The position numbers and the translations under genes are program-made. DNA of 61,868 nt, filler included, from Dugesia japonica (taxonomy: Eukaryota), in NCBI GenBank assembly GCA_001938525.1. It is 6 parts of 6 records of this genome, joined end to end, with 100 filler letters (N's around TTAATTAATTAA, not from the genome) between each part and the next. Parts side by side here need not be neighbours in the genome. Positions count along the whole stretch, not along the records: positions 1 to 11,256 come from MQRL01497790.1; 5 more parts are not named here. One strand, given 5' to 3'. Shown here piece by piece: positions 1-27,400 of the stretch. The stretch's first letter is position 1. Each line of letters begins with the position of its first letter. A model generated the notes under the pieces. That model worked only from the letters and a program-made list of their open reading frames with translations, did not search any database and had not been told where the DNA came from.

Positions 1-244
1 ATCATTGTGACGAAAGTTTCAACTTGGGTTTTCCACACCCTCTCCTGATTCTGGGTGGCGGCCATCTCCGCTTTAAAAGTCAGACATTTCCGCTTATAGC
101 GTTTTACCTTAGCTTCGGCCGTGGTGGTTTCCGCTTTCCATCGCCTCTTCGCTAGTTTATAAAGATNCCAGGTAATCTCCTTGTCATCACTATCTTCTCG
201 TAATTTCTTAGTTGGGACCTGGAACCTATTCAAAGACGAATGCA
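1..244 (-). CDS. Cassette ORF3 copy A (partial), coiled-coil protein
   Basis: After acceptor TTTCAG|TG reads xHSSLNRFQVPTKKLREDSDDKEITWxLYKLAKRRWKAE..., homologous to ORF3 of copies B and C; open to the window edge. Confidence 0.7.
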
Positions 245-480
245 CTGAAATATAAACAGGTTTAATATGCTACACTTTACTCAATGTTACTAATACTAGA
301 AAAGTGGGGTAGTCTTGACTACCACCATTACTAAATGAAATGGATCAACCCAACCTCTTTACAAAATAAAACAAAAATATACTAAAATTGAATTATTATC
401 ACCAGTAAACTGCCTCACAAGAAAAGTTGAAAATAACCACAAACGAAACAATTATTTATTTCTAACAAATAACCAAAAGT

Positions 481-837
481 TTAAGAGGGGTTATTACTAG
501 TGTCGGTATTGGGGACGGTATTTTCAACGTCAGCTACCCCATTCGGCTCCCGGACTCCCCAGAGAAGATTAGTGATGAACGTTTGTATCGCAGGAGCTGG
601 GGGAGTAGTGGTAGGTTGATAGGAAAAGGAGGTTGCTAAAGTGCGATCCGGGCCTGTCCACGCCTGGTATCGCTGGCGTTCTCCGAAATCGTTAATGCGG
701 CCAACGATTGATTCGACCGGCGGTAAATTTGCCCGGTTTACTAAGATTCCGGTATCCTGATGATGCGGGTTATGATATCGTCGTAGAGTTAGCCGACGCG
801 TTCGCCTATCGACGAAACGTATCCATATAGAGTCCAT
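481..837 (-). CDS. Cassette ORF2 copy A, 118 aa unknown protein
   Basis: Intact ORF, clearly homologous to 18546-18893 (DRRTRR, NLPPVE, WTGPDRTL, NLLWG.REP); acceptor TTTAG 3 nt before ATG. Confidence 0.75.
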   Translation of the reverse strand: MDSIWIRFVDRRTRRLTLRRYHNPHHQDTGILVNRANLPPVESIVGRINDFGERQRYQAWTGPDRTLATSFSYQPTTTPPAPAIQTFITNLLWGVREPNGVADVENTVPNTDTSNNPS

Positions 838-986
838 TCGCTAAATAAGGGGAATATAGTTTAATTTATGATTGATAACTTTCTTTGAGTTAGTTAAATA
901 TTAATGGAAAGGAACAACAGATATAAACAGCTCAGTCAAAGATCTATTCAGAACAATTAACAATAATGGACAGATTTTATCCCTGC

Positions 987-1181
987 TTAGTAAAATGCAT
1001 TTTCTGCGTCTAGATCTACCAGACCCACTAATGGGAACATTTCCGTGAAACAGCACAAATCCGTTTCATCTGGATGTTCAATGCGTCCTTTTTTGAGGAT
1101 ATGGGCGAGTAATTGTCTTAAACGAGTGGTTTGCCGCCGTCTTTTTATCCATTGGAGAGTACGCCTCAACTCTGCTGGCAT
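987..1181 (-). CDS. Cassette ORF1 copy A, 64 aa basic-helix protein
   Basis: Motif QLLAH...G.(I/V)EHPDETDL.C..E conserved in all four copies. Confidence 0.75.
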   Translation of the reverse strand: MPAELRRTLQWIKRRRQTTRLRQLLAHILKKGRIEHPDETDLCCFTEMFPLVGLVDLDAENAFY

Positions 1182-2586
1182 GACGGAATGAAAGAAAAAT
1201 CGAATTTTAATCGTAATTTAAGGATTAGATCCTCGAGGAGAATTTGTTATATTGCAAATAGATTGCACCGCCTCTAATTCACGTTATTCATTTTGTGGAT
1301 ATTTCAAAGTGAGGTCCTACTGTTACTGTTAAGCTTATCCCGGTCTTACAGCGTTCGGGCAGAAAATTATTAAGTTTAGATTCAACGTTTAATGACGGGC
1401 GCTAAAATTGTTGAGATGGTTGGTCGAGATGGTCATAATTCGTTATATCATTATTATCAATAAAATTTATAAAAAACACCAATTTTATTAATTATAATAT
1501 TAATTAATCCTTGCTAAATTTATGGTTATTAAAACCCGCGCGTGCTATTGTTGCCCAGGAATGTCTTTTCTCTAGGTGATTGAGTCAGTGTATCGTGAGT
1601 AGGTATGCGACACACCCTCTTTTTATGTGGTTATCGTAAGAAATCACCAATTGAGTTTATGTGCTGACTCAAGCGATTGTAATATGTTGTAAAATGTTTT
1701 CTCTGCTTTCATAATGATCGGGTAGCAGCAACGTGGATATTTCTAAAGGCCATCTCATACATTTGTGGAATTTATTTATTAAATAATTATCTGCTATCTG
1801 CGAACCTAAAATTTGTTGTTAGGGGAGCAAAAGATTTTTCTGCGGAATGTTTCCATGGAATTTTCATTCAAAGCTAGCATCGGAATCAGACAGAGTTAAA
1901 GTCAACAACGGCAATTATATTTAGCAACTATTCGATTGCACACATCGTTAGTAGGAATATTGGTAGTTGATTGAGGTGTTTACTGATTCTATTTACACAT
2001 TGTAAATAACACGGATTTACCCTTTATTTCAATGTCAATTCTGGTGATTTCATCGTAATAAATTTTGTTATTCATTTTATTAATTTTTAAAAAAAAATAA
2101 ATCAAGTATAACCGACATTTCTATTCAAATTTTATACATTATATATTTATTAGTTATAAAGAGTAAAAAAGAAAATCTACTAGGTTTAGCATAATAATTT
2201 ATTAACATAACTATTATTCATATACGATGTTAATTAAAATAACATATTACTTGGTGTTGTAGGATTAAAGACTTTCTTCAACGGGTTTTTGGTGGACAAG
2301 ATAGATTAAGTTGACTAGTTCTGATTATTGGTCCGGTATTTCGTTCTTTTCGTCTTCTTGAAACAAGTAATATTAACCGCAACACAAATGAAATGTTAAT
2401 TTACTCTCGATTTCCAATATAGACAAAGTAGTTGCTGCGCGATAACCACGTAATACAACGAATTTCTTGGTACTTCCTTGACTTGTATAAGTTATAATCA
2501 CAAAATTTCAGAGTTACTTTTTGAGTATATAAGTAGGCACAACTTGTGATGATTAGACTGAATAATTCTGCTAAAATCAGGGGTCC

Positions 2587-2790
2587 TTTTATAGGATTTC
2601 TGAGACATCCTGACTTGTTATTGATTTGTTGATTATTTTTGGATCAACGTTTTTCTGTTGTCATTGGTTCTCATGCCATTTTTCTACGATTTTCTATGAA
2701 TTTTGGTGCCATGATTGGCAGCTATTTTTATCCGGACACATGGCATTTGTGTCTTTGTTATATTTTTATTTTTAAATATCTGATTGGTCT
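2587..2790 (-). promoter_or_regulatory. Putative promoter of cassette copy A (TATAAAA plus upstream CCAAT boxes)
   Basis: TATAAAA on minus strand at 2587-2593 in context AAATCAGGGG..TTTATA shared with copy B (7054-7059); several ATTGG boxes upstream, also in copies B and D. Confidence 0.5.
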
Positions 2791-3834
2791 AATCTTGAGG
2801 ACCCTGCAGCAACCCTTTGGAAGGTGGTATGTTTTTCGTTTTTGTAATTTCAGTTGCCCCTTGATGTTCTCTCTTCATTTTTTCTTGTCCAGATTCTTTC
2901 CGACTTCCCTGATCGAAGTTATCTGGATAAAACAGATTTTTAACTAATTTTGCTTCTTTTTTTATTTTAAAATTAATTAATTTTCTTTTGTTAATTAATT
3001 ATTTTCCATAACGTTTTTCTATGTTGTTTATTATTAAATTAATAATTGTTCTTAATTTCCAAAAGTAAGTTGCTTTTATTTTACTCGGTTCATCATATTC
3101 ACCTTTGGTTTTATTTCGTTTCCTTCTCCTGCTGCTTTCATTGCTTCATTTTCCATTATTATTGACTATAATGGTCCTGCCATTCTTGTTTGCTGATTTA
3201 TTTTTCAACCTTAATCTTGTTTAGCGGGTGTTTCACCCCAACAAATATACTGAATAGACTACTTCAAATTAAAGAAGTAATCCTGCTTATTTTCTTTTAA
3301 AATATTTATTGTGCACTGTTAGCAGCTGCTATGTTTTCTCCAGTTTGCATCTAAATATTTATCAATAAATTATATGTTATGAGTAAATCCAGTGAAAATT
3401 AATTCTACCACAAAATAGTAATATTAAAACATTTAATTGTCTTACTTATTTTCTTTTTTTATTTGAAATTTCTTCCATTATTAATACATTTAACTTTTAT
3501 GAAACTCTTTAAGAAATTTATAAAACTTTTCATAAAATTTTTATGTTGGATAATTAAACATCCTAACATGTTTTGGGATTCTACTTAAGTTATGAGCAGA
3601 AAAATTTTAAAAAATAGAAAAAAAACAGCCCTCAGGGGTACCCCTTGAAGAATTTACGCAAGTTCCCTTATTAGGTTCTCGGTGCGAAGCGGTTGACTTC
3701 CATCACATATTTGGAGTTCACACTTGCACACCTTTAGTTCGGGTTCAACATTTCCCATTTTAATAAAGGCTCTTGAAATATTAACCATAAATTAGCAAGA
3801 AAATTTCTTTTACACAAATATGCTTATGTTACAT

Positions 3835-4123
3835 TTAATTTAAAGCTTCAGGGTCAAGCCACTGGGTCGGCTCGTCATTTAAAAAGTCGATTGCGGCCTC
3901 ATCATCATTGTGGTTTCATCTTATCCACGTTTCCGTGATCTGTTTAACTTGCTTAGCTATTTCATCCTGTTTTTTATTGATCAGCTCTAACTTCTTGATT
4001 AACACTGTGTTAGATGTTGACACAGAGAGCGTTTGCAACGTTTAGAGTAATGTCTCTCGACTAGTAGTTTTTGTATTAGCTCATGGCAACATTCGAGGGA
4101 GTTTGGCAATCTGATTCGTGGCA
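3835..4123 (-). pseudogene. Cassette ORF4 copy B (premature stop)
   Basis: TTTTAG|TG CCA CGA ATC...; C-terminus AAIDFLNDEPTQWLDPEALN matches copies C and D. Confidence 0.65.
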
Positions 4124-4226
4124 CTAAAAATAAACATGATAAAAACGAGAACCCGTTACGCAAACAATATGTAGTTAATAACAAGAGTTTGATAATACAA
4201 TTTATTAAAGCAACCAAAAGGAGCAG

Positions 4227-4582
4227 TTAATTTTTTGTCTGAGTCGACTTATCAATCATCAGTAGCTCCAGAGAAATACGCTTACGCAGTTCTAATAATT
4301 AAGTCACCAGTTTATTCTCACAGTCATGGAGGGACCGGATAACGTTAGCAAAAGACTCAAGTTGGCGCTTCCAGATGCTCTCTTACGAATGGAATGCTTC
4401 TGCTTCTACTCTATGTTCTCGGCAACGAGCCTCGTAACGCCCTACTTTGGTCTGGGCGAAAACTACTTCGGCTTCCCATCGGCGTTTTGACAGTTTATAG
4501 ACATCCCAAAACATAGCGATGTTTTCGCTATCCTCTCGCACCTTTTTGGTGAGAGCAACGTAACTGTCTCGTGAATTGTTCA
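4227..4582 (-). pseudogene. Cassette ORF3 copy B (two in-frame stops)
   Basis: WDVYKLSKRRWEAEV...IRSLHDCENKLV...LMIDKSTQTKN, collinear with copy C. Confidence 0.7.
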
Positions 4583-4758
4583 CTAAAAGAAGCTACTAAT
4601 TAATGTTTGCTAGAATTCGCAACGCTAACAGTTTAATATTATTATTCCAAAACCCAACTTAAATGTTTAACGAAATACCAAACACCAAAACGTTGAAGTC
4701 AGATGATAAAAAAATTAACGTAAATACTATTTATTGTCAAGCAAATATTGATGCACGA

Positions 4759-5138
4759 TCAATTCTCGTAACCTCTAATGCTCCACATATAGTCGTTAAT
4801 AGTTTCTCTTATTTCCGAAGGAGTAGGAGAATGAGCGGAAGGATTATGGATTGAAGACGGCTCAACCTGCCAATCTCGTTTAGTATGCTGAAAACCATTC
4901 TCGCCCGTTGTAGTTGTCGTGGTAGCGAAATACGTCACGCGATTACAGTTAGGACCTGTACAATCATAAAAATCCTGCCGCTCAGTTGCGTCCCAATGTA
5001 CTTTGTTATTAGCGTCTTCAACAGATAAATTTCGATCGTTCTGCAAACACACTGGCATTTCTATTAAAAGATTAGTGTACCGTTTAAAAACCATCTGGTT
5101 AGTACGGCGATCCAAGATTAACTCCCATTTAAATTTCA
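4759..5138 (-). CDS. Cassette ORF2 copy B (divergent)
   Basis: Same position as other ORF2; shares W..I.DRRT, TGP..R and 'INDYMWSIR' similar to 'INNLLWGIR'; begins at acceptor TTCAG|TG. Confidence 0.6.
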
Positions 5139-5260
5139 CTGAATACAAGAGAAAAATTATTTTAGATAGAGGAAGTCAGTTAGAATTTCAAACAAAAATA
5201 TTAATTCAATAATTTTTTAATACAGATAATAATTTATTTATAAGCAATAACAAAGCATAG

Positions 5261-5446
5261 TTATAAGTATTGATCTAAATGGACTATAAGTTTTGACGGG
5301 AATATTTCTAAAAAACACTGCAGGTCCGTCTCATCCGGATGTTCAACTTTCCCTAACGACAATATATGGGCCAATAATTGCTTTCGACGTGCCTTCTGTC
5401 TTTCTTTGCGGATCTGTCGGACAGTTTCGTACAAAATTCTGGACAT
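5261..5446 (-). CDS. Cassette ORF1 copy B
   Basis: QLLAHILSLGKVEHPDETDLQCFLEIFP; acceptor TTTAG 4 nt before ATG. Confidence 0.7.
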   Translation of the reverse strand: MSRILYETVRQIRKERQKARRKQLLAHILSLGKVEHPDETDLQCFLEIFPSKLIVHLDQYL

Positions 5447-7860
5447 TTTCCTAAAGTAAGTTTATGAAAAATAAACATAATTGAAATATCATTTGATTTA
5501 TTTTCGGCCTATTTAAAACAAGAGTAAACGAAAATCGATATACCTCAGAATATTAATGAAACTCAAAAACACGAATACCCATCATTATGCAATAATAATA
5601 TTCCTAATGATAACCTTAATAAATTAATATTAATAATGATTAGGCCAGTAATAATATTTTTATCATTAATATTAACAATAATAGTCCTGATAATTGCATA
5701 AATAATAATCGTAAATAAATTATAATAATAATAATAGCAGAACTCGGAAAATTGTTAAAATTTAAAACTGATTAAAACAGAAAGTACTGTTTATTTGACT
5801 ATTAGTGATTGGCGCTATAATTGTAATACTGTCGAAGCGAATATTAGTCAAAACATCGAGACCAAAAGGTCGGTGTAGTGACATCATCGTTATTCAGCCA
5901 AGCGGTGACAAATTTGAGTCCCAGAACTGGATCAACCCAGGAGGTTAAACTATCTAGCAAAACTGATTATCAATGAAGAAAATACTGAATTTGTAAAAGT
6001 TTATAATTGTGCAAGTAAGGTGTTAGTCACCATAGAACTAAAAACCCAAAAAAAGTATTAATTTTAATAATCAATAATTAATTAGCAGTCAGTGTTCGTC
6101 TTAAAATCAACACTAAGGAAATGGTGGTGGAGTATAAAGATTTTACACACTCACTAAATTTTCTACAAATCAGAGTTATTACTATCAGCTACATCGGGAC
6201 ATTAATAACTCGATTAGTTGTAAGACAAACTGTTAATCTGATAATGGATGAGTAATAGGTGTGCGGTCTGCAGTGCAACATGTATACATAAAAAATCGTC
6301 TCCTACAGTTAGTTTGTAGGTTCTTATCAGTCATCGAAAATAGTGTGTAAATTGCTCATTTCCATCATGCCTCATGGTCTGGAATGCATAGCTCGTTTTC
6401 AATGCCATTTCCTAATGCCGATTGAAAATTAATTTTTTCTCATGGATTACAATATATTCAAAGGGAAAGGGTTACGAAGTTGACAAGAATTGAACGAAAA
6501 TTATTAGATCGGAGATAGTCACATTTCACTCTTACGGTAAATTTTTGTTAATTATCAAATAAAGTGTTATACTGCCATTTAGTGAAAGAGAGTACTATGA
6601 TAGTGAAGGAAGCAAATTCTAAACGTCTATCAACAAGGACTTATTAACATTCCACACGTATTCTCAATCGAAAACCTGGACAACTGGAAATTAATGAAGT
6701 AGTGGAATTTCTTAATGATTATGCTAATTTAATTGGATCTGGTTTACCAAACATGTGAATTGTTTCTATGAAATAAAATTTGTGTTCTTATACTACTCAT
6801 TATCATTTTTTACTGGCATGCAACAGATAATCATAGATAAGGTTTGAAAAAGTTTTTATTAAATATTAACACATTATATGGTTAAAATAACAACAAATAA
6901 CATTACTTTTCAAAATTAGGACGGTAAAAGTTGATCCAATTAATTCGTTTATCCAGAATTGCGCACTTCCAAAGAGATTTTCCACGTAATAACCGAGTTG
7001 TAGTATTAACAAATGTAGATTTTTTGGGGGTAAATCAACTGAAATCAGGGGGGTTTATACTTCCTCGTCGACACACCGAATTTTCTACCATTGACCGGTT
7101 ATTTTTATTTTTGGTTAACCGTTTCTGATTGGCAATAACTCCAAAATTTTCAGACTTTCTACGATTTTCTATCATTTTGTTGGTGCCTATTTTTAGAGCA
7201 CTTGCTGATTTTCAGGGCTTTGTTTTCCGTTTATCTTATGGCTTCTCATATGCCTGATCTTTAGACCCTTCTGATGATGGCAATGTTTTCTGTCACCAAA
7301 TTCAATTCCTCCACGTTATTATACCTCTAAACTTTCTTTCCTGGACTTCCTCATATTTTCCTGAGAGAAGATAATTTCCTTTAACTGATTTTCACACAAT
7401 TAAATTCCTTTTTTCAACAAAATTAATTAATTTCTTCCATTATTTTAATTATAATTTTAATAATAATTTTCTTGTGTTTTGATTATAAATTATAATTCTT
7501 GTAATTGGATTTGATTAATATTAATATTTTATTATTTCTGTTACTTCTTTATTCGTTCTGTATTTTCTTCTGGTCATCTGTTGATTATTTATTACAATTT
7601 ATTATCAAGATGACAATTATTATTGATTAATCTCCACGTTTCTTATTGCTTCTTTTTACTACTCAATGTTTGGGTCCCTAGTCATATTTCCTTCTTTGAT
7701 CAGGTGTTTCACCCCAACACATGCACTATTTTTATTAACTTCAAACTTTTACATCTGTTAAAGATACTTCTTTCCTTTTCCCACGAGAAATGCCGATTTT
7801 ATTGTAGCCTCACAGTAAATATGCAATAAAATTTAGCAACTTTTTTTCAACCACATTTGT

Positions 7861-8045
7861 TGGGGTTCCACCTGAGTCGGGTGGTAATAAAAATGAGGCT
7901 GGGGAAAAAACAGCCCTCAAGGGAACCCGTTCAAGAATTAAACCTACCGCCCCTAGGGTAGGTATTCAGTTTATGGTGGTTGACCTCTCCCTTAATGGGA
8001 GGTGCACACCCATAAACCTTTGTATTCGGGTTCAATAGTTTTCCC
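7861..8045. ncRNA. Conserved multi-stem structured terminal element (also ~3574-3756 and ~17375-17557)
   Basis: Stems GGGTTCC/GGAACCC, GGCTG/CAGCC, ACCTACC/GGTAGGT, GTTTATGG/CCATAAAC; stem sequences differ between copies but pairing is retained. Confidence 0.55.
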
Positions 8046-8102
8046 TTAACTTAAACAAAATTTTAAATCAAATAATTCTGGGAACATTTATTAATACAAC
8101 AT

Positions 8103-8500
8103 TTATAGCTCATTTAATACGCTAGGGTCTAGCCATTAATCTGGGTCGTCTATTGTAAAATTGAAGGCGGCGACATCGTCGTCATTGTTCCAATGAATCC
8201 AGGCTGGATTCCGAATCTGTCTGGAGAGGTCAGCTATGTACTGCTTTAAAAAGTCTATTTTTCGTAACAGTAACTGCCTGGTATCGGCCTCTAGGGCTTT
8301 GGTTTGGATTGCAAAGTCGTTTTGCTTACGGACTACCAAATCCAATTTTTTTATGAGTTGATTCCTTTGGTCAAGGTGCTTAAGGAAAGCTTGGTCTGCT
8401 TTGCGTTTTAAGTGTCGCTCTAATAACAGGTGGCGTAAGATGCGGTGGCGTAAGACGCGGTGGCACCTCCTCAAACTAGTAGGAAACGCGATTCGAGACA
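8103..8500 (-). CDS. Cassette ORF4 copy C, basic N-terminus, coiled coil, acidic tail (late premature stop at 8136)
   Basis: ORF track 8136-8501; reading through the TAA gives WLDPSVLNEL as in copy D (QWLDPGVPDEL); starts at TTTAG|TG. Confidence 0.7.
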
Positions 8501-8619
8501 CTAAAGAAAAAGTATAATTAAATTAATGAGTACCTAAGCTACGACGCGGGAAAACAAATAACAGAGAAATTTCATACAATTAAATATTTTATCGTTTCAA
8601 TCAATAATGCAACATCAAG

Positions 8620-8979
8620 CTATGAGAGGCTCGTCTGAGTACTTTTGTCGATCATTAGCGGTTCGAGGGGGATTTTCTCCCGGAGAATCAAAATGTCGTT
8701 AACCAGTTTATTTTCTCGGTCATGGCTGGACCGGATAATCTCTGAAAAAGATTCCACTTGTTTTTTCCAAGTGCGCTCCTGTAAATGGGAGGCCTCCGCT
8801 TCCTTTCTAAAAAGAACACATTTTTTCTTATAACGGAGGACTTTACTATTCGCAGTGGCCACTTCTGCCTCCCAACGTCGTTTGGCGAGTCGGTAGAGGT
8901 CCCACATCATTTCGCGGGCCTCGCTAGTGTCTCGGATTTTCTTGGTTGGAGCTGGGGGGGCGATTTAACGATGAATGCA
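8620..8979 (-). CDS. Cassette ORF3 copy C, coiled coil with C-terminal DKSTQT
   Basis: ORF track 8620-8910; 5' part from acceptor TTTAG|TG at 8979 has a +1 shift in a C7 run. Confidence 0.7.
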
Positions 8980-9182
8980 CTAAACGAAAATATCATAAGA
9001 ATTATTTCTCTTCATCGACTTGCTGATTAATCCTCTTATATTTGTTCAACTCTACTCAAAGCATGAAAACACAGAATAACAATATTAAAGGTAATCTTCC
9101 CAAGGGGCTAAAGAGTATATTAACACTACTTAAGACACTTATTTATTCAAAGAAACACAAATTTTATGATTATGAATAACAT

Positions 9183-9528
9183 CAAGAGTCGGGAGTGGTA
9201 GTATCAGGGGAACTGTATTTTCCACATCCGCCACCCCGGACGGTTCCCTAACACCCCAGAGCATATTAGCTATAAAGGCTTGAACTACTGGTGGAGGAGC
9301 TGGAGGTTGGTACCGGAATGGAGTGGCGTGGCTACACTCAGGACCATTTCACTGGCGATAGTTTAGTCGCTCTCCAAAGCCCTGAATACGAGCAACAGCT
9401 GCTTCGACGGGAGGTAGATTTGATCGGTCTACCAGGATCCCGGCATCTCGAGTGTAGGGATTGTGGTGCCGTCGGAAAATTATTCGACGGGTTCGCCTAT
9501 CCATGACTCGCTCCCATATTGATTCCAT
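9183..9528 (-). pseudogene. Cassette ORF2 copy C (internal frameshift)
   Basis: MESIWERVMDRRTRR..., downstream LWGVREPSGVADVEN is in another frame. Confidence 0.65.
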
Positions 9529-9667
9529 TTCTAAGAATGACGAAATATTAGTAAACTCAATTAACACATTATACAATTACAATAAACACTTAAATGTATG
9601 ATTAACACGCTACGCGGAATTTTATTCAAAAGATCATTTTAACAGATAACTATCACCGAAGTAAATG

Positions 9668-9850
9668 TCATCCCTCATCCCGATCTACGTTCCTTTCCAA
9701 GGGGAATATCTCGGTGAGACAGCACAGGTCTGTCTCGTCTGGGTGTTCAATTGTTCCCTTTGTGAGAAAGTGGGCTAGTAACTGTTTGAACCGGCTAGTC
9801 TGGCGTTGCTTTTTTATCCAACCCAATGCCTGATCTAATTCTGTTGGCAT
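9668..9850 (-). CDS. Cassette ORF1 copy C
   Basis: QLLAHFLTKGTIEHPDETDLCCLTEIFP. Confidence 0.7.
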   Translation of the reverse strand: MPTELDQALGWIKKQRQTSRFKQLLAHFLTKGTIEHPDETDLCCLTEIFPLERNVDRDEG

Positions 9851-11300
9851 GAGCTAAAGAAGAAAATGGTTAACTGTTGTTTTTTCCTTTTGACTTAATT
9901 CCCCGGATCAACTTATTGTAGCAACTTGTTATTTGATGGGGGTCATATCATGGAAGGGTAGAAATTAAAGGAGGATCGTTACCTAGGATCATCGCAACCT
10001 GGTTATGAGGGTAATGTTAATTCTAGCATAAAATGATAGTTAATATCACCGCAAAAGTACGTAACAAAATAATTTTCTTTTCATAATAATATTCGTGATA
10101 AAGATACCTGTTATGGCCCATGGAAGCACGACCATATCGTTGCATCTGATAGTATCACCAATCCTTATTCGGAATGGTAACCAGCCCAATTTTTAATTCA
10201 ATTCTCCGATTACTCTAACAAGTTGACGTCTATTCCCCCCAAAACGCTATTATTACTATTAATGGCCAAATTCCTGTAACACTGGTTATTATAAACGTTA
10301 TAACATTAATTTTCATCAATAAAAGCAACAATAATGATAATATAAGCACAAAAAGGAAAATTAAGATTATTTTCTAGTTTTTCTAATTTTGAATTTCTGC
10401 CTGTTATAGTTGCCTAGTGATATTGTTTAAACGGGGTATATTGGTCTCACTCGTGTGAGTGTGTGCTTGCCAGTTTAATTTCGTATATGTGTGTATAGGC
10501 AGGTAATCTAACTAAAGTAGATAATATCAACTAGTTACATCACTACTAATGATAGGAATCTCGACTGATCAAACTTAGTGATGTTGGGGGATTTTCGCAT
10601 GTCAAAAAACAAAATTTCTTTATAATGTACATACTCAACGAGAAAATTTTTTTCACTCCTATAGAGTCGGGTCACAAAAATTTGGCTGCCACTAAAGATC
10701 ATGGAGATTTTAATAGATCAGAGCGTATTAAGGTTATTTTTGGAAGTTATTTGATTGCCATCTCTCCATGATTTCGTTGGAATCAACTGCAGTGAGTTGT
10801 AATTTATTAATTTTCTTAAATAAATAGTTGGAAATGGTTTTCTTAATTGATTATTTTATTATTATACTTCAGTCTAGGCGTGAATCGTAAAATTATGGAA
10901 AGAGATTAAACCCAGTTTAAATTCTGGAATCTAGCTGTTAGGGTGTGATTAATCCAGCAACATACATTTTAGAATTACCATATTTACGTATATCATATTA
11001 TTTGTGGATATAAAAAGAAAAGCGATTACTTTCTTAATAATCAATAATTTCAAGGGATTCTTAGTTTGAACGGGATTAATGTCACGATGATTCATGATTT
11101 ATTAGTTATCGTTAAGAAATAATAATGTACGTTTTTATAGCATGAACAAATTTTATTAAGATAAATGATATTCATCGTTAAAAATTATACCACTTTTACA
11201 CAATTAAAATAATAATTTACTTTTTAATATTCCTGTAAAATTTTCTGCAACAGGTTNNNNNNNNNNNNNNNNNNNNNNNNNNNNNNNNNNNNNNNNNNNN

Positions 11301-11389: not shown

Positions 11390-13400
11390 ACATGTCACAT
11401 TTAAATTATTATGAAGCTGATATACCAATGAATTTAAAAGATATCCCGAAATTTGAAAAAGAAAATTATAGATTATCAATAAATGTCTTATTTTGGAACC
11501 CGCATTGAGGACGATGATGTGGTCATGACACACTATAATCTTGTCATAATACATCGATCGAAAGCTGTTTACAGCGAGAAGATTAATTTATTACGGTTGA
11601 AGGATAATGATGATTTCCATTACACAGCACTATTGAATTTAAACCATGTAATAAATAGAGATCGAACGAATTGTGTAAGAATACAAACATTACGATGTCT
11701 AAATTGTCTGAATGGATTTCACTTGAAGGACAAATTTGTAAAACAGAAGCTAATTTGTGGTTGAATTCAAACGGGCACTACACACTGTATTATGCCGACT
11801 GAAACCAANTTAAAATTCCAAGATTTCAACAAGGCAGTTACTCTCCTTTTTGTATTATATGCTGATTTTGAATTAGTTTTATCTCTCAGATGAAAAATAT
11901 TTCCAGAAATATCTACATGTTTCGGCTGGTCGGTTGTAGGTAAATAATTTTACTAATAAAGTGAAATACAGCAAGTACTTTGGAAATGACTGCTATTTTG
12001 AGCTTTTAAAGTCAGTTAAAGAATAAAATAATAATTTACTAATCCCTATTACAAAAAACATGGTAATAAGCAAATTATAATGTCCCCTCACATGATTGTT
12101 TAGACCAGCCCGAAATTGTTATTTATTTAAACATAAGCTCATAAACCCAGTTCGAGATCACAACCATTTTACAGGAAAGTATAAAGTAGCTGCGTGTAAT
12201 TTTTGTAATTTATCAAGAAGAGTTCATATGCAACTACCGGTTGCGTTTTCTAATTTGAGAGTGGATGATGAGTATATTTATATTTATATTTTATTGCTAC
12301 ATACTCGAATATGGACTCAGCAGATTCCAAAATGAAATATTAGTTGTATTTCTATGACTTTTGAAAAAGTCCTATGTTTAATAGTGCACCAAAAAAAATC
12401 ATCTACTATTAAATTTATTGAGAGTTATCAGTTTATTTTACAGTAAAAGAAGTTCAAGACGGTAGGATAACGATATCAAAGGGAATATTTCCTTATAATT
12501 ACGCAACTAGTTTGCAAGTTTTGGTTGAAATAGTTGACATGCCACAAAAGTTGGAGGAAGTAAATGAAGAAGATTAAAAAAAGGTGATCAAGATGTGGAT
12601 GCTGGCAAGTTGTTATATGTTAGTTTATTTGAAGTTGGATCTGCTTTTGTTAGCGGATTTTTTTCAATAGTTAAGAATTAAATCATTAAATTTAGAGTCT
12701 TTCAATTTTTTCGGAATACCATGGATGAGTTTGGCATCATCATTGATGTCATTAGATGAGCAAATTGAACTGTTGAAAGATAATGACATGTACACATGTT
12801 TTAAAGGTGGAATAAGAAGCGGGCTTACATTCATCAATTAACACCATGTGGCATCTAATGACAATACTGATTTATTGTATATAGATAATCACAATCTATA
12901 TGGTTGGTCATTAAGTCAGAAATTTCTCTATGCAGATTGTGAGTTGGTCTATAATTTATTGGAAACAACGCTGGAAGAATGTAAGACAGGTGACCTCAAC
13001 TTGTTACCAAATTAATACTCATTGGTGGTAGACATGGTTATTTTGGAGGAAATTTACGATTGCCTAAACGATTTCCCAGTAGCAGTGAAACATCATAGTT
13101 CATCAGGATCAAAAATTGATAAATTGTTGTTAACACATTACTCAAAAAATAACTATATTATTTATCGGAGGCTGTTGTAAATGTATATTCAGTTGGGTGA
13201 ACAGATGATAAAAATGCACAGAGGAGTTCAGTTTAGAGAAGGAAATATGTTTAAAAAGTATATAGATATTTATACATAATGGATGTCAAAAGCAAAATCG
13301 TAATTGGAGAAAAATTATTATATATTATTCATTAATAGCTTAAAAGGAAAATCTGTGGAAAATTTGAAGAAAAGAATTAATGTGCGCTTGTGCATTATAA
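11390..13400 (+). pseudogene. Polinton/Maverick protein-primed DNA polymerase B relic
   Basis: YADFE, PVRDHNHFTGKYKVAACNFCNL, GGIRSGLTF, LLYIDNHNLYGW, NSLxGKSVEN; many stops and frameshifts; homologous to 28400-30350. Confidence 0.85.
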
Positions 13401-13709
13401 AGTAATAAGAAACCATCAGTTATATAGCATAAAAAATAATAAAGTTGTACTCAGTAATAACGACGATAACAGAGTGTGGATTCGCAAGAATACATCGATT
13501 TCATTTTGGCACTACACATAAGGTCATATATAAGACCAATTGTAGTATTTTTCTTACAGAACAATTACGACAACAGATAAATCGAAGCTGGTATATTTTT
13601 ATATTATCGTTAAAATTACAATGATTAAAAATTTGTTTTAATATTATTTAGAAATTGTGTAATTTTGATTTATAATAAATATTTAAAAGAAGTCTGATTT
13701 GAAAGTAAC

Positions 13710-16500
13710 TTAACTGGCGACCACGGCAACAACGAAAATTAATTTTAGAAGCCTTGTCTAAGAAGAATTTGGAACTTATTAATTTTAATATTAAAAAATA
13801 TGATTGTAATGATTCTTCATAAGCCTCAGCATGGCTGAAAGAAATCAACGAATAGCTCATTGTGAATGATTTACGCTTGATGGGAATTATCGATGAAGAT
13901 ATTTACGCAATACGGAGAAAGAGTTATTCAAACGTGTTAAAAGGAGACTGAAGTAGTAATGAGAGACGGCCTCAAAACCAGCCGTCAATTAATTTTAAAA
14001 CCAATAATAATGTAAGATATGAAAAACCAAGAACAGAAATTTCAACGTATCAGAGAAAGTTCAACGAAAGGATGTCACAACCGGTAATTACAGAGAACAG
14101 AACGTATGGTTTAAGTAGGAAACTGGCAGTTTCAAGATGTCTTTTTAACAGATATAGAGGATTACCTGAACTACAAGAAGAACGATTACGGGAAGGACAA
14201 TGTTATTGTAGCAGAGAACATGAACACATGCGTTATCAATGTCTAATAAAATATAATTGTTTGATATACGGGAAAGCTGGACACAATTTCCGGCAATACT
14301 ATCTTGTGAAAGTTTGATCTAATAAGGGAAATATTAAAATTCTATGCATCCAGAGGAACAAGAGGTACAAATTGACAAAGATGAAATCTTTGAAATGCAT
14401 GATATTATCAAAGAAAAAAACCAGAACAACTCCGTTGCATACATTTTGTCAGTGGAGTTAACTTAAGAAGAGATAACTTGAATCGAAATAATCAAGACAG
14501 AAGATAGATGTATGAAAAAGAAGACGGAAGAGCGTGAAGAAGAGTAGACATGAATGGAGTAAAATTGGAAATGTTGTGGGATTCGGGAACATTGATTACA
14601 ATTATGAGCGAAGAGTACTGGTTGAAGGTAGGAAAACCAATCTTGTTATGTTGCAATGTCATGTTAAATGGGGTATTTTTGAGCAGTGAAGAGAGGCCGT
14701 TATGATTTGTTGAAGTGAGCGTTAAATGGAATAATACAGTGAGAGTTATTAAAATCATAATTTTTAAAAAGACGATCAAAGTTTATGGATGGCATAGATG
14801 CAGTGAAAATTTTCGGAATAAAACTGACAGAAGTTAATAACATTGAAACAGAATGTTTTGGAAGAAACCACTCAAACGATGATAGAAAGAATTACGCATT
14901 AAATGTCTTCTAAAAAACAAATAACAAAGATCTAAATTATCTAATTTTGAAGTTTGTTGAAATATTCATGGCGATTAATTTTGATATAAAACATACAAAA
15001 CAAATAATATACGAAAAATAAGTATTTGGAGATCCAATTGTTCAACATCCCCGGAGACAACCGATGCACTTGAAAAAGAATATTGACGAAATGATACTGC
15101 GTTTAATAAGTATTGGGATAATTAGCATATGTAAAAGTTGGAAATGGAAAAAAAGATGGGTTGGTAAGAATGTGTGTCGATTATTGACAACTGAATATGA
15201 TCACTGAAAAGTTTCATTTCCGATGCCAGACATCCAGTTATTATTGGCTTGCTTAGCAGGTGCAAAAATACTTTGTTCAATTGATCTAGGACAAGCTTTC
15301 TATCAAGTAGAACTATCAGAAAGCTTGAGAGATGTTGCGGTGTTTAGTACAAAAGAGGGTCAATTTAGGCTCAATTGGATTCTATTTGGGTTAGCAACGG
15401 CAACGTTTCAAAAGTTGATGCATGATTTGATGGCAGGAGTGATTTTTAAAGGTCTCATCGTATATCTAGATGATATATTAGAGTTTGAAAGAACGGTCGA
15501 AGATCATAATGATATTTTGAAAGAATTTTTCAACAAAATAAGAGAATCAGGATTGAGAATAAATCCAGAAAAATGTAACTTTTACCAAAAACAACTGGAC
15601 CTTTTGGGACACACAATAAGTACATGAGTAAAAACAAACGAAACTAAGATTTAGGAAATAAAAAATGCCGAAGAACCAAAATGTTCATCTAAACTCAGAT
15701 CTTTTTGCTTAACGAATTACTACAGGCGTTTTATCAAGGATTACGCTAGAATTGCAAGACCTTTGAAGCTATTTTAAAATGGGAAAAAAGTTTGATGTGG
15801 ACAGAAGCATGCAGAAAACGTTTTGAATGACAAGTTATGTAATGCACCAATCTTAGATTACCCAAGAGAAAATAGAATGTTTATCCTAGATACTGATGTA
15901 AGTTTCGGAGCTATCGGTGCAGTGTTGAGCCAAAGAACAGAAGATAGTGAAGAGGTGGTGATAGCTTATGAATCCAGGAACTTTACTGCTTATGAAAAGG
16001 GATACTGCGTTACAAGAAAAGAATTGCTGGCATTACATGAATATGTGGTACATTTCAAGCAATATCTATATGGAAAGAAATTCTTAGCAAGAAAAGATCA
16101 CAAAGCACTGATATTTATGAATAACAAAAAAACCGATAAGCCCACGATTTCAGACGTGGATAGCAAATCTGGGAGAATATGATTTTGAGTTAAAATATTG
16201 AAAGGGGTTAAAACGCAACAATGCTGATGGATTATCACGAATAAATGAGAGTTTATGCTCACAATACTAAACAGTACATTTGGATTCCATGGAAGAAAAA
16301 TCAAGAGTAAAATATATTAACAACAGAATGAAAACATTATAAAAAAAATTCGGAATGCACAGAAAGATGATTCAATAATACAAAGAATAAATGAAATAAT
16401 TCAAAACGAAGTACGGCTAGTAGAAAAGATCATTCAGGGAAATTATGTGGATCAACTTGATCGCGAATTGAAAATTGATTATGGATTGACGAAATAAAAT
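13710..16500 (+). mobile_element. Decayed Ty3/Gypsy LTR retrotransposon (PBS, gag, PR, RT, RNase H)
   Basis: PBS-like TGGCGACC at ~13715; LWDSGT protease; IDLGQAFYQV and YLDDIL RT (15223-15627); FILDTDVS and KELLAL RNase H (15823-16182). Confidence 0.9.
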
Positions 16501-17293: not shown

Positions 17294-17309
17294 TAATAAA
17301 AATAATAAA

Positions 17310-17349
<40 letters not shown>

Positions 17350-17371
17350 GTAATAATAATAATAATAGTAA
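17294..17371. repeat. (AAT)n microsatellite interrupted by copy D; resumes at 21421-21475
   Basis: AAT arrays flank both sides of copy D. Confidence 0.85.
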
Positions 17372-17614
17372 TGTTGGGGTTTCACCTGAGTTGGATGGTA
17401 AGTAAATTATGGCTGTTTTTAAAACAGCCCTCAGGGAAACTCTTTCAAGAATTTACCCTGACGTTCTTGGGTCAGGTATTCAGCATATGATGGTTGATCT
17501 CTCTCTTAATGGGAGGTGCATGCCCATAAGCCTTTTATTCGGGTTCACTATTTTCCTTTAACTTACACAAAAGATTTAAACCAATGATACTCGAGACATT
17601 TATTAAAATGACAT

Positions 17615-17957
17615 TTATAATTCGTCTGGTACGCCAGGGTCTAACCACTGGTCTGGGTCAGTCATTAAAAAATGGAAGGCAGCGACAACTGGCGGGAAAG
17701 GTCTGCTATGTATTGTTTTAGGAATTCTATTTTCATTTGTAATAGTTGTTTTGTTTCTGCTTCCAGGGCCTTGGTTTGGGATGCTAGGTCACTCTGTTTC
17801 TTCACTATCAAATCCAGCTTTTTTATTAGTTGGTCTCACTGGGCTAAATGTTTAAGAAGGGCCGGATCGGTCTTACACTTTAAATGTCATTCCAGTAACA
17901 GACGGCGCAGCGTACGATGACATCGGCGAAGACTGTTAGGGAAATTGATATGAGGCA
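17615..17957 (-). pseudogene. Cassette ORF4 copy D
   Basis: TTTCAG|TG CCT CAT ATC AAT TTC CCT..., internal TGA, ends DPDQWLDPGVPDEL. Confidence 0.65.
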
Positions 17958-18075
17958 CTGAAAGAAATTAGATTAGTATATGGTAACTTGACACAAGAAT
18001 TTAAGTAAACATTAAGATAAACTCGTAAGACAGATTGAATGACAAATTTATTTACAACGAAAAATTATTGCAAGT

Positions 18076-18368
18076 TAGTTCCGGTGAGTTTAGTTGACCT
18101 TCTCGATCATCAGTGGTTTGAGAGGCATTCTTTCTCGTAGGAACAATATGTCCTCAACCAGTTTATTTTTTCGGTCATGACTAGACCGCATAACCTCCGC
18201 AAATGACTCAACTTGTCTCTTTCAAGTTCGCTCCTGCAAGTGAGAGGCTACGGCCATCTTTTTAAAAGTGATGCACTTTTTCTTATAGCGAGTCACCTTA
18301 CAGTTGGCAGCAGCTTTCTGTGCCTCCCATCGGCGTTTTTCCAGTCGATATAGGTCCCGGTGAATGCA
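18076..18368 (-). pseudogene. Cassette ORF3 copy D (deleted, acceptor mutated)
   Basis: DLYRLEKRRWEAQ...MRSSHDRKNKLVEDILFLRE. Confidence 0.6.
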
Positions 18369-18545
18369 TTAAAAGAATTTTAAAACCAATCAAACATTAC
18401 AAAGTGAACCGCTATCTCTATGACTGATATTGTCATAGTACATTTACAACTTGCGCTTAAAGTTAATTTCAAAATCAAAAGAAAATATGATGAAACTAAT
18501 CTGAAGACAACAAGATTTTTACGACCAAAACAAAAAAATAAACTC

Positions 18546-18893
18546 CTAATGAGTAGTTGCTGAGTCAGTTGCGGGTGTAGAATTCTCTGAATCCTTGCTA
18601 CCTGATGGTTCTCTTATCCCCCAGAGTAAATTATTGATAAGTGCCTGTACGGCAGGTGCTGGAGCTGCTGGTTGATACTGGAAGGTTGTGACAAGTGTCC
18701 GATCAGGCCCTGTCCAATTATGATGGCTACGCCGCTCCCTGAAATCCTGTATTCGAGCTATGATGGCTTCCACTGGGGGCAGATTAGACCTATCGGCCAA
18801 GATCCCCGCGTCATGATTGTTGGGGTTAAGATGTCGTCGGAAAATCACGCGACGAGTCCGTCGGTCTATTATACGTTCCCATATAGATTCCAT
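18546..18893 (-). CDS. Cassette ORF2 copy D, 115 aa
   Basis: Intact, homologous to 481-837. Confidence 0.75.
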   Translation of the reverse strand: MESIWERIIDRRTRRVIFRRHLNPNNHDAGILADRSNLPPVEAIIARIQDFRERRSHHNWTGPDRTLVTTFQYQPAAPAPAVQALINNLLWGIREPSGSKDSENSTPATDSATTH

Positions 18894-19014
18894 TATCTAA
18901 TTAAAGAATGAGAATAATTATTACAAATAAAAAAAAATTATATAAGTAGCTATAAAAACGCCAACAAGGTGGTACATATATTTTATTTCATGATAGTGAT
19001 GCCAACAAAAGAAA

Positions 19015-19197
19015 TCAATCCGCGTCTAAGTCGACTCCTGCCATTAAGGTGAACATTTCTGCAAAGCAACACAGATCCGTTTCGTCTGGATGCTCAATTG
19101 TCCCTTTAGTCAATAGATGAGCTATTAACTGTCTTAACCGGGCAGTTTGACGTTGCTGTTTTATCCATCGAAGGATACGGCGCAATTCCGCTGGCAT
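19015..19197 (-). CDS. Cassette ORF1 copy D
   Basis: QLIAHLLTKGTIEHPDETDLCCFAEMF. Confidence 0.72.
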   Translation of the reverse strand: MPAELRRILRWIKQQRQTARLRQLIAHLLTKGTIEHPDETDLCCFAEMFTLMAGVDLDAD

Positions 19198-21420
19198 AAA
19201 CTAAAGGATTAAACTGTCAATGCTAGTAATTAAATTCAGGGTTGAACCAAAACAAAATTTCTTGTTACCGCACGAGGACATTTACCATAATAACAAGTTT
19301 AATAATCCCGGGATAATGTTGGTGATGATCATAATAATAAAATTAATAATAGTTGTAGTACGTATATTAATAACCAACAGTTCTAATATATAAGAATAAC
19401 AGTCTTAGAACGTATAATAATAGCCACTGGCACCACCAGTAATGACAGAATCCTTTACTAAAATGATTAAGATAACATCCGGCAAGAACTACACTAATGC
19501 AAGCCATATTAATAGTAATTGTAGTAAGGATAGTAGTATTACTGATAACTGTAACCATGATAACAATACTAATAATCATAGTGCCAATAGCAGCAATAAT
19601 AGTAATCACACCATCAATACCAATAACAATTATCACCATCATGTCAGTAACACTAATATCATGAATACCAATAATGATGATGCTAATAACGGCAGTAATA
19701 ATAATATTAATAATACTAATAATAACAATATTAATAATAGTAGTGATAATATTAATATTAATAATAATAACGATAATAGTGACAACAACATTTATGATGT
19801 TAAGGATACTATATTAGTATAATCAATTTTAGATTATCTTTTGCTCAAATTTGTTAAAATTGGGAGTTGCGCTGAATTTNGTATTTTCCCTCGTAACAAT
19901 AAAATAATATGTTTTTTGTAAACTTTAATGATTTGACCGAAGTTCGCAAATTAATTAATTGTGGGAAGTGGTTGCTTAACAGCCAAAAAATTTGTAATGG
20001 CTAGTATTACACATTATAGTTAAAGGATAGTATGTGTGTATGCAAAAAGGCATTATTGTACATCGATCGATTCACCCTGGTTACTATGGTGAAATTAACC
20101 ACGACGGCAACTTAAGTCACTATAATGAGTAACTAGTTGCTTATTTTTATAGGGAATTTGGGGGTAATTACTCACGCTCATAGCTGGATTAACTCCAACT
20201 AACTCGTTTAATTTGTAGATCCTGTGGTGGGCATATAATTCTTAGATAAACCTATTTGACACAAAAAAATTTAAAATAAAACTCATTTCACTGTAAATAA
20301 AAGGTTTTTTTTTTAATTAATAATTAGAGCTAAAATTCCATTCAATTTATTTTAATTTATTATAACATAACAGAACACTTCCTATCAAGTTTTTGATAAG
20401 ATTTCCGCAACGGGGAATAACAGACGAATGAACTATTTTTCCTTCTTTTAATTGATAACGAAAGTCACAACTTTTGCTGTTTTAGGACAATTGAAAATCA
20501 GCAAGGTTTAATGAATAAAATTACTTTGATGCGCGATAACTGATCACGTCGATTTCTGTTTGTTGATATCGTAACAAAATTCTGCTGAGGGTTTTTCTTT
20601 TGTGAATTACCGAATTGTATATTAGTTTTACGAGAGATTTAGTAGTGTTTTTGTGATGATCTTCTGCTTATTTCATGTTTCCTTAATATATGACTTTTCT
20701 TCGCACCCCAACTTTGTTCATATTTGTTGGTTATTTATAACCGGAATTTTCGGCTTCCTATTGGTTCTAGTGCCAATTTACTAAATTTTTTAGAGTTTTA
20801 GAGTTCAATTGGCGGTTATTTTTAAAACTTCATGTAATCGATTGTGCTTTATCTTTTTTTTATTTTCAGGTTCCTTATTGGCCCAATCTTGAAATTCCTG
20901 CAGCAACCCTCTGGATGGTGGTAAGATTTTCTTCTTAACAAATGTTTCTTACTATTTTCTTTTTGGATTTTCTTACCCGAACTCTTTCTGATTTTCCCAA
21001 GCGAAGTTATTATTTAGATTTAATTTCCATTCAAATTTAATTAATAATTCATCCTTAATTAATTCTTCTTTAAATTTGCTTCTCCTTGTATTTAATATTA
21101 TTTAATATTCTATTCTAATTATTGATTCGATGCAGGTTACATTTGTCCATTAAAGATCTTTTTCCCTTCTATTTCGGTAGATGTTCATTTTTAGTTCTAT
21201 TGTCGGTTGCCCTGAGGTTTTATATTACTTCTTCCAACGCTATTTGTTTGCAATGAGTNNNNNNNNNNNNNNNNNNNNNNNNNNNNNNNNNNNNNNNNNN
21301 NNNNNNNNNNNNNNNNNNNNNNNNNNNNNNNNNNNNNNNNNNNNNNNNNNNNNNNNNNNNNNNNNNNNNNNNNNNNNNNNNNNNNNNNNNNNNNNNNNNN
21401 NNNNNNNNNNNNNNNNNNNN

Positions 21421-21476
<56 letters not shown>

Positions 21477-22249
21477 TAAAATACAAAAGTGAAATTAGCA
21501 ACACCAATCATAATAATCAAGATATTATTAATGATAATAATAAGAACATAATAATATTTTATATAATAGGATTAAGTGGCTATACATTATCCTGTGTATT
21601 TAGTTGGGAAAATTTTTAAGGCTTTTTAGTTGGGAAAAATTTTTTATGGGAATTTTTTAAATAATCCGTGCAAACTGTTCATTTTGTTTAAAAAATATGA
21701 AAATTTAAAAATTTTTAAATCAAATTTTTATGGAAATCCGGGAGAACCTTCGAAACTTCGAAAATTTTTGAAAAATTTTTTTATCGAGATTTTTACATGA
21801 ATCGATGGAGAATTCGATGNNGATTATTTTTCACAAATAAAAATTTTTCGAAAAAATTATTTCTCATCTTTACATAAAATAACTATGTTTATTAGATAGA
21901 AAATTCTTTGCTGATTCTAAATATATAAACCTTAAATCACCAAAGTTTATCCGGAATGAAATAAATAAGGTTTTGTGGTGAAAAATCTCAAAACTCAAAG
22001 TTTAGCGCTCAGAGCTCTGTGCACAGAGAACTGCTATCGACTCAAATTTNNNNNNNNNNNNNNNNNNNNNNNNNNNNNNNNNNNNNNNNNNNNTTAATTA
22101 ATTAANNNNNNNNNNNNNNNNNNNNNNNNNNNNNNNNNNNNNNNNNNNNATCATATAAACCTATATAAAATCCATATAATAACCTATATAAAACTATGTA
22201 ACACTTAGTTTTGCTTAGTAATCTACAATTTGTATTGTTCTTGTTGCAT

Positions 22250-22628
22250 TTTTATTGTTGTTGATGATATGTATTAAGAGGCAAATAAAGAAAAAGATTT
22301 CAATAATTTATTCATAAAAATATCGAGACGTCGTAATGTGACTGTTATATTTATTACTCAAAATCTATTTCGTCAAAGAACCCACAATTTATACGTGCAA
22401 AATTTGGTTCTATTAAAACGTCCTAGAGATCAGACTGTTGTTAATTTTCTAGCAAGACAAGCATATTCAAATAATAGACAATTTTTTATTGAATCATTTC
22501 AAGATGCAACAGAAAAACCACATGGATATCTATTTCTTGACTTTACACAACAATGTACAGATGATTATAGAGTAAGAACAGATATATTCAACCCTAATGG
22601 TATCACAGTATATAAACAAAACGGGTAA
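22250..22628 (+). pseudogene. Polinton A32/FtsK-like packaging ATPase, C-terminal part
   Basis: Walker B-like VDDM, SRRRNVTVIFITQNLF, KPHGYLFLDF. Confidence 0.85.
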
Positions 22629-22647
22629 TTTTTCATAATATAACAAA

Positions 22648-23400
22648 ATGACAAAATTAAAGAAATTTTTAGTTGATCAAGTAACTGATGGTCTTATTAC
22701 AATAATTGTAATTTTAAAAATGGACATCCAGATAATTTACAAACGGATTTGGGTAACTAATTTTATAATTCCAAGGTAAGAGAACTTATAAATCATCTAT
22801 CCATAAATCATTATAGTGTATTCTCACAATATAAAGCTGCACAAGTAGAGAGATTTAATCGTACATTTAGAGATGCTTTGAAAAAGTACTTTGTACATTT
22901 TGGTAATAAGACTTGGATAAATGTTTTACTGAAACTTATTCATAGTTATAATCATTCTGGTCATAATGGATTAAATGGGGCAAGACCGGTTTATGTATGT
23001 ACATACAATCTATTTAAGTTATGGCTATCACGTTAACATTCAAAAGCAAATAAAATATCAAAGTATAAAGTTGGTGATCATGTGAGAATCTCGAAAATTT
23101 CAGCTTCACCATTTGTCAAGATTTCAATAGTAATTGGAGTGATGAAGTCTTTCAAATAACAAAACTAAATACTTAACCAAATCCGGTCATGTATGTTATT
23201 AAAGATTATGAAGATAATATTGTGCAAGGAAAATTCTATGACCAACAATTACAAGTCATTTAATCACCAGAGATACAAAAAATAGAAACAATAATCAAAT
23301 CAAAGGGATCAGGAAAGAATAAACAATACTATGTAAAGTGGCATGAATACGAAAAACCAAGTTGGATATTAGCATCACAAATAGTCAATCCGGAAGAAAA
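22648..23400 (+). pseudogene. Polinton retroviral-like integrase with C-terminal chromodomain
   Basis: LQTDLG, KAAQVERFNRT, YKVGDHVRISK, YYVKWHEY...SW. Confidence 0.85.
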
Positions 23401-23406
23401 TGTAGA

Positions 23407-26050: not shown

Positions 26051-26099
26051 ATAATATGTTGTTTAATTGGTACATGCTATGAAGTAAGTGTTATTATAT

Positions 26100-27194: not shown

Positions 27195-27400
27195 GAAAAA
27201 TTGTAATGCTAATGAGATTTTTTATTAAAAATTGCATCACTAATGAGATGTTTTATTTTAAATTACATCCCTGATGAGATTTTATATTAAAACTTGATTC
27301 ACTAATGTGATGTTCTATTAAAAATGGCATCACTGATGAGATTTTCCATTAAAAATTGCATCACTAACATGATTTTGTATTGAAAATTATCACTCTTATG
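27195..27400. repeat. ~33-bp minisatellite, about 6 units
   Basis: Units like AAAAATTGCATCACTAATGAGATTTTTTATT. Confidence 0.75.

Follow-up and report, generated by a model that had tools for sequence, protein, structure and literature searches.

The DNA analysed here, hereafter the window, is a stretch of 61,868 nucleotides (filler included) from the planarian Dugesia japonica, in which self-comparison and alignment revealed four diverged copies, A to D, of a unit of about 4.1 kb that begins with TG and ends with CA. Copy A (<1-3243; no strand is assigned to the units) extends beyond the left edge of the window and, like copy B (3571-7719, 4149 bp, with a decayed left terminus), closes on the right with CCCCAACA. 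Copies C (7858-11256) and D (17372-21258) both open on the left with TGTTGGGG and are cut at the other end by a gap of Ns, the end of copy D being computed at 21238, 20 bases before the gap. On their minus strand the units carry four small open reading frames, ORF1 to ORF4, whose order is constant across copies and whose start sites are the main subject of this work.

Nature of the repeat unit

The ends of the units form an exact inverted repeat of 9 bp in all four pairings of copies C or D with copies A or B. Copy B, the sole copy with both ends, is bordered on either side by the 4-bp target duplication CATG (1 of 1). Terminal TG...CA, a short inverted repeat and a duplication of 4-6 bp are features of a solo LTR of the Ty3/gypsy type, and all of them are present. 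Judging from the termini and the one target duplication, the four units are likely to be solo LTRs of a large gypsy-type planarian retrotransposon; no gag-pol, PBS or PPT linked to the units was found in the window, and no internal region adjoins the four copies. A non-autonomous TIR DNA transposon was also considered and rejected. Elements of this kind, such as Ginger, have terminal inverted repeats tens of bases long, and the exact terminal match of the units spans just 9 bp, with 16-19 of 40 terminal bases agreeing in ungapped comparison.

Contig comparison disclosed many related copies of the unit in contig runs, and in one contig of related copies about 18 bases connect a right end with a left end. 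The units are clustered in positions 1-11256 of the window, where A and B are 327 bases apart and B and C 138 bases, while copy D lies within 17294-21480 and is placed between AAT repeats. Conservation among B, C and D is good over some 300 non-coding bases at the TGTTGGGG end (3571-3860, 7858-8140 and 17372-17650, respectively), and RNA reads of relatives extend to this terminus.

The four-ORF cassette

The exons are best described in copy C, all on the minus strand. The ORF1 exon (9668-9853) has an acceptor AG, three bases and an ATG at 9850, encodes 60 codons and is followed by AATAAA at 9626. In the ORF2 exon (9208-9530) two bases separate the acceptor AG from an ATG at 9528; a premature stop occurs at 9349-9351 and AATAAA at 9147. 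The ORF3 exon (8620-8979) begins with AG|TG at 8979, its frame is broken within the first ~10 codons, and its product is basic with one long predicted helix. The ORF4 exon (8136-8500) begins with AG|TG at 8500 and comprises 120 open codons without an ATG, with AATAAA at 8092. The corresponding minus-strand features are, in copy A, an ORF1 ATG at 1181 with no AG just before it, an ORF2 acceptor at 840 and an ORF3 AG|TG at 244; in copy B, an ORF1 acceptor at 5450 and AG|TG at 5138 (ORF2), 4582 (ORF3) and 4123 (ORF4); and in copy D, acceptors of ORF1 and ORF2 at 19200 and 18896 and an ORF4 AG|TG at 17957, the ORF3 start having been removed by a deletion. A YAG lies just upstream of 13 ORF starts, the exceptions being ORF1 of copy A, which has none, and the deleted ORF3 start of copy D. 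AATAAA or a variant follows most of the ORFs on their 3' side, and from there to the next acceptor the distance is 83-216 bases. The offset from acceptor to ATG varies (4, 3 and 3 for ORF1; 3, -1, 2 and 3 for ORF2), with the result that the frame differs between copies.

Across 22 pairwise ORF comparisons the amino-acid identity was 34-77%, with pS of 0.69-1.16 and pN of 0.13-0.49, and four-fold sites were identical in 113 of 327 comparisons (35%), which is to say that synonymous sites are saturated. Saturated silent sites together with pN below pS indicate that the lineages are old and that, on this comparison of four copies, the ORFs evolved under purifying selection. All present copies carry stops or frame breaks. 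Within ORF3 there is an island of synonymous constraint at 8703-8735 (also at ~4307-4339 and ~18158-18190), where B, C and D agree at 6 of the 7 degenerate codons of 8706-8733, as against 4 of 31 elsewhere. On the minus strand the island contains AATAAA and a 5-bp inverted repeat, and on the plus strand it resembles an initiator with downstream elements; it would be a second, overlapping cis element, possibly the main promoter of the element. Ile/Leu-rich open frames located directly upstream of ORF1 in B (5565-5754), C (10232-10373) and D (19367-19813) probably derive from ATT-type simple repeats.

Protein searches with single sequences and with alignments found no homologue of ORF3. The ORF2 profile gave two matches among 1.84 billion proteins, one of which, P0001, is real (E 2.6e-15) and sits on a single 512-base contig; the other, P0002, is a repeat protein and was judged spurious. 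Viral and metagenome contigs yielded no related locus, whether queried with ORF2 or with a terminal DNA motif, and scans of the cassette against Pfam, PHROGs and PDB sequences returned sub-threshold matches only. Structure prediction rendered ORF3 residues 14-97 (84 residues) as a single basic helix at pLDDT 87, so that its product is likely to be a putative coiled-coil regulatory or scaffold protein; the ORF2 model is of low confidence (pLDDT 54).

Putative split start sites and a candidate leader

The original prediction held that ORF3 and ORF4 have no ATG at their homologous start and begin instead with an in-frame AG|TG, as does ORF2 in copy B. At all seven positions concerned (244, 4123, 4582, 5138, 8500, 8979 and 17957, each denoting the T of TG on the minus strand) the sequence reads [C/T]AG|TG, and 9-12 of the 14 bases before each YAG are pyrimidines. 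The frame of an A|TG start stays open for 80 codons at 244 (to the window edge), 40 at 4123, 65 at 4582, 125 at 5138, 120 at 8500, 17 at 8979 and 22 at 17957, and at six of these sites it runs straight into the conserved ORF. Position and motif were therefore as predicted throughout, and the frame fails at one site, 8979, which lies in the very interval that had been flagged: there the A|TG frame is shut after 17 codons and differs from the ORF3 frame, copy C being disrupted within ~10 codons at a break point where contigs of related copies (runs X1, X2 and X3) vary in length.

No ATG was found at the homologous ORF3 and ORF4 starts, in agreement with the prediction, and copy C ORF4 has none within 120 codons; ORF3, however, carries a Met in frame some 23 codons after its start, within the motif M-x-W, in copies B and C; copy A lacks it. 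The ORF3 residues preceding this later Met (TKK-x-R) are conserved with synonymous changes. In ORF2 a Met stands four residues before an invariant Trp in A, C, D and P0001, and it is at this column, in frame, that copy B shows the predicted AG|TG at 5138. The 45 bases upstream of it hold no other AG, and decay of an ATG at this place would also need the old acceptor to have been lost and a new one created.

YAG|TG is kept at 3 of 3 ORF3 starts, among the copies that have this start, and at 3 of 3 ORF4 starts, and the next bases vary. YAGTG by itself is common, with 30 minus-strand sites in the four units, seven of them at ORF starts; elsewhere in the window TG follows 8 of 136 acceptor-like sites (5.9%). 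What goes beyond chance is the conservation of YAG|TG at homologous starts and not the motif itself. By our own arithmetic, an invariant third-position G would have a rough chance of 0.35^4, or about 0.015, if the position were free. If xTG encoded Leu or Val, its third position could vary freely; the invariant G fits Met rather than either of these. TYAGT as an initiator instead of an acceptor was considered and discarded, given that ORF1 and ORF2 have an AG without the T-G pattern after it.

A candidate leader donor, AAA|GTAA, was identified by comparison on the minus strand of copy C (11217-11223), where the intron would start at 11220, and on the same strand of A, B and D, with the G of GT at 2517, 6906 and 20524. 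The original prediction named no coordinates for its leader; with these sites a candidate leader ending in A exists in 4 of 4 copies, as had been claimed. An A precedes about half of the upstream donor-like sites (39 of 76), so that this ending means little without a positional test. When all NNN|GTNN words were tested, AAA|GTAA was the sole one common to the four copies at 1330-1463 bases before ORF1. Any shared word arose in 3-5 of 1000 circular shifts with windows of 135-200 bases, in 26 of 1000 at 300 bases, in 91 of 1000 at 500 bases and in 2 of 500 block shuffles (0.4%), figures that flatter AAA|GTAA, as the window and the anchor (distance to ORF1) were picked after the candidate had been seen. 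The same test, which deals with upstream regions that barely align and with just 36 surviving bases of the copy C leader, found no shared NNN|GTNN word on the plus strand. A vertebrate-style donor matrix recovered no donor common to the copies; a host wnt exon in the window ends T|GTAAGT, and a G before the donor is thus not required in this host.

TATA-like boxes occur upstream of the donor, TATAAAA at 76 bases in A, TATAAA at 153 bases in B and a weaker one at 97 bases in D, and no ATG lies between box and donor in A and B or within 152 bases in D. Whether the upstream exon might be coding in phase 1 had been raised along with the prediction, and the copies give a divided answer: in D this frame is shut six codons before the donor is reached, and in B it is without a Met, but in A it is open for 33 codons, with a Met that lies upstream of the TATA-like box. 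No likeness between copies is evident in this frame. The state of the phase-1 frame, the lack of an ATG from box to donor and the ORF1 and ORF2 offsets that change frame between copies together favour a non-coding leader in the stretch before the candidate donor. In 3 of 4 copies such a leader would place an A at -3 of the rebuilt AUG. Upstream of the candidate leader there is a conserved Lys-rich minus-strand stretch (2624-2922, 20722-21010 and, more weakly, ~7100-7400; 68% between A and D), possibly a further decayed ORF or a promoter region.

Among the sequencing runs listed as containing the stretch, none is recorded as RNA, which counts neither for nor against transcription. Raw oligo-dT or cDNA reads under the same species label that could be aligned numbered 184 in run X6, 53 in X9 and 35 in X5 (88% likeness), and 43 in X7 and 58 in X8 (80%). 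All of them fit only in part and pile up on the conserved middle of ORF3, with strand not resolvable, which identifies their source as more distant members of the family. RNA depth is near zero at the acceptors and the leader. In animals with an impaired piRNA pathway (smedwi-2 RNAi), LTR elements are reported to increase (PMC8532177). Junction reads had been proposed as the check on the prediction; intron-type (CT..AC) ends were seen at 0 of 11 and 0 of 15 of the joints listed (0 of 26), where RNA reads hardly cover the junctions. The contigs of X2 and X3, which we can only guess to be RNA, read through the acceptors of ORF3 and ORF4 without a splice.

Proposed origin of the start codons and comparison with known systems

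We consider that the pattern of start sites is real and non-random and that it probably reflects splice-assembled start codons: one cis-spliced leader, alternative last exons and an AUG made as A|TG, a reading to which we assign a probability of roughly 0.72. Under this proposal a promoter inside the unit, upstream of the donor and perhaps marked by the TATA-like boxes of A and B and the weaker one of D, would produce a pre-mRNA whose short non-coding leader, ending AAA|GTAA, would be cis-spliced onto one of four acceptors; the introns removed before ORF3 and ORF4 would measure about 2.2-2.8 kb. Each mRNA would carry one ORF as an alternative last exon that ends at its own poly(A) signal; the last A of the leader would complete the A|TG start of ORF3, of ORF4 and, in lineage B, of ORF2, and initiation would take place at the rebuilt AUG in an A-rich upstream context given by the leader. 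The claim that splicing creates the AUG is supported by the DNA comparison as far as an A-ending non-coding leader joined to AG|TG is concerned, and it stays an inference in view of the joints mentioned above.

Four other explanations were weighed against this proposal. ORF3 and ORF4 could be internal exons of the usual phase-1 kind, spliced to a coding exon further upstream or in the internal part of the element, with xTG as a split internal codon. Such codons are commonplace, a donor could lie in the internal part of the element, which is outside the window, and the phase-1 frame of copy A is open with a Met; yet the early closure of that frame in D, the missing Met in B, the invariant third-position G and the ORF1 and ORF2 offsets, which shift the frame between copies in a way that a common coding exon would not tolerate, make this improbable. 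A near-cognate GUG could serve for initiation, whether the RNA is left unspliced or joined at a G-ending donor, and ORF3 could alternatively start at its later Met. In favour of this are a GUG whose frame is right at six sites with no splicing at all, unspliced contigs that span both acceptors (X2 and X3) and the M-x-W Met of ORF3 in B and C. Given this GUG, and the later AUG in ORF3 of two copies, the prediction that unspliced RNA cannot initiate these proteins was too strong; what such RNA lacks at that site is an AUG. The pyrimidine tracts and YAG before the ORFs nevertheless point to splicing, the sole shared donor ends in A, and the later Met of ORF3 is missing in A, the residues before it being conserved as coding, so that we hold GUG initiation to be very unlikely.

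The cassette might also be an operon whose transcript is resolved by trans-splicing of a spliced leader, each acceptor receiving the leader's terminal AUG. The host is a flatworm, and flatworm leaders are described as ending in ATG and often sharing acceptors with cis-splicing (PMC12582326); just 83-216 bases separate each poly(A)-type hexamer from the next acceptor, and at the ATG-type acceptors of ORF1 and ORF2 an added leader AUG would match the frame in 4 of 6 cases. At the AG|TG sites, however, it opens the wrong frame in 7 of 7 cases, for 0-25 codons and with an immediate stop twice, as the original prediction had anticipated, and copy C ORF4 would be left without any AUG. Trans-splicing has, in our judgement, a similarly slight chance of explaining the cassette; unable to provide the starts of ORF3 and ORF4, it may still take place on the side at ORF1 and ORF2. 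That the AG|TG starts are the product of decay (ATG to GTG) or of coincidence in dead repeats is suggested by the stops or frame breaks in all copies and by the 30 occurrences of YAGTG in the four units, but for six homologous starts to share this state in lineages whose synonymous sites are saturated, identical mutations would have had to recur, each also making a good acceptor, and this we find hardly credible.

Returning to the cis-spliced leader, the varying acceptor-to-ATG offsets of ORF1 and ORF2 suggest that acceptors slide, and a leader ending in A would let an acceptor slide into the ATG. The split start could possibly have been selected as a "lock" against translation of unspliced or read-through RNA, which the proposal does not require. 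The minus strand has strong poly(A) and acceptor signals, which suggests that it may be antisense to the genomic RNA of the element. A more ambitious version can be advanced only tentatively, and we doubt it: in a giant retroelement of planarians, the terminal repeat itself would constitute a transcription unit like that of a complex virus, with the last A of the leader shared by several start codons as an obligatory part. This would amount to a selected splice gate that prevents translation of the putative coiled-coil proteins ORF3 and ORF4 from genomic, unspliced or read-through RNA. The gate would have arisen repeatedly, ORF2 of lineage B being a further instance, and would operate in all solo LTRs whose promoter is preserved.

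If the proposal is true, an abundant planarian repeat contains a four-gene cassette that is invisible to ATG-based annotation and was maintained by selection across lineages with saturated silent sites. It would also offer a natural series, with the ATG 4, 3 and 2 bases behind the acceptor and then split, in which to ask how split starts arise, by neutral slide or under selected control. Solo LTRs, by this view, could stay protein-coding units in a stem-cell-rich host.

The HIV-1 accessory genes and the adenovirus major late unit use one leader and several acceptors with one ORF per mRNA, and HTLV-1 HBZ belongs to an antisense unit started in the LTR; in most ORFs of these units the AUG lies complete within a single exon. 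The layout proposed for the planarian cassette, with its common leader, is similar, and no protein homology was found. The split-start mechanism itself is not new. In Drosophila melanogaster the gypsy env start codon is reported to be made by splicing AT to G (PMC2585583), and in the springer subclade of insect errantiviruses env is described as spliced to an AU dinucleotide (bioRxiv 10.1101/2023.08.03.551782). The likeness lies in an ORF of an LTR retroelement that has no ATG of its own and receives its start from a 5' exon spliced to the acceptor. Those cases, as described, involve an AT|G split in one ORF, env, of the internal region, with an experimentally mapped junction, whereas the planarian cassette, known by DNA comparison, has an A|TG split in two or three of four small ORFs inside a terminal-repeat-like unit, a poly(A)-type signal per ORF and an ORF2 whose start is ATG or split according to lineage. 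A|TG in this unusual multi-gene setting would be a new form of a known device, and the cassette is not an env.

Burro/GYPSM1 elements, giant gypsy-like LTR retrotransposons of Dugesiidae for which accessory ORFs are described (PMC6431247), share with the units the host family, multi-kilobase TG...CA units and abundant old, decayed copies. By description they are the obvious host-family candidates for these units; ORFs inside LTRs or split starts are not mentioned in the available part of that account (PMC6431247), and the two available Schmidtea rows of the PMC13524379 supplements hold no LTR coordinates. The sORF1 and sORF2 of the Drosophila MDG1 group, which are separated by an alternative poly(A) site, are likewise small accessory ORFs of gypsy-type elements; they are reported as unspliced (PMC11952523), and acceptors precede the ORFs only in the planarian cassette. 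Flatworm spliced-leader operons resemble the cassette in their closely spaced ORFs and in the order of poly(A) site and acceptor (PMC12582326), and differ from it in the frame of the leader's terminal AUG at all seven AG|TG sites. We found no relevant description of the cassette in the literature; Repbase entries or the supplement of the Schmidtea genome paper may already describe its ORFs.

The rest of the window holds other elements and host genes. Decayed Polinton-like genes at 11400-13500 and 22200-30300 include pieces of a protein-primed polymerase B and an integrase (weak Pfam matches) and, by eye, ATPase-like and capsid-like frames. A decayed gypsy pol at 13700-16500, with a second copy at ~40256-41272, has Pfam matches to RT and RNase H, and no link to the units was seen. 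The wnt exon mentioned above (46992-47330) is a single wnt11/wntP-2 exon with 97% identity to Dugesia japonica wnt11 and 74% to Schmidtea wntP-2, and no other exons of this protein were found in the window. A large host gene on the minus strand (52183-61868) has a 1425-codon open exon with no Pfam match, and our guess is that it is apolipoprotein/vitellogenin-like.
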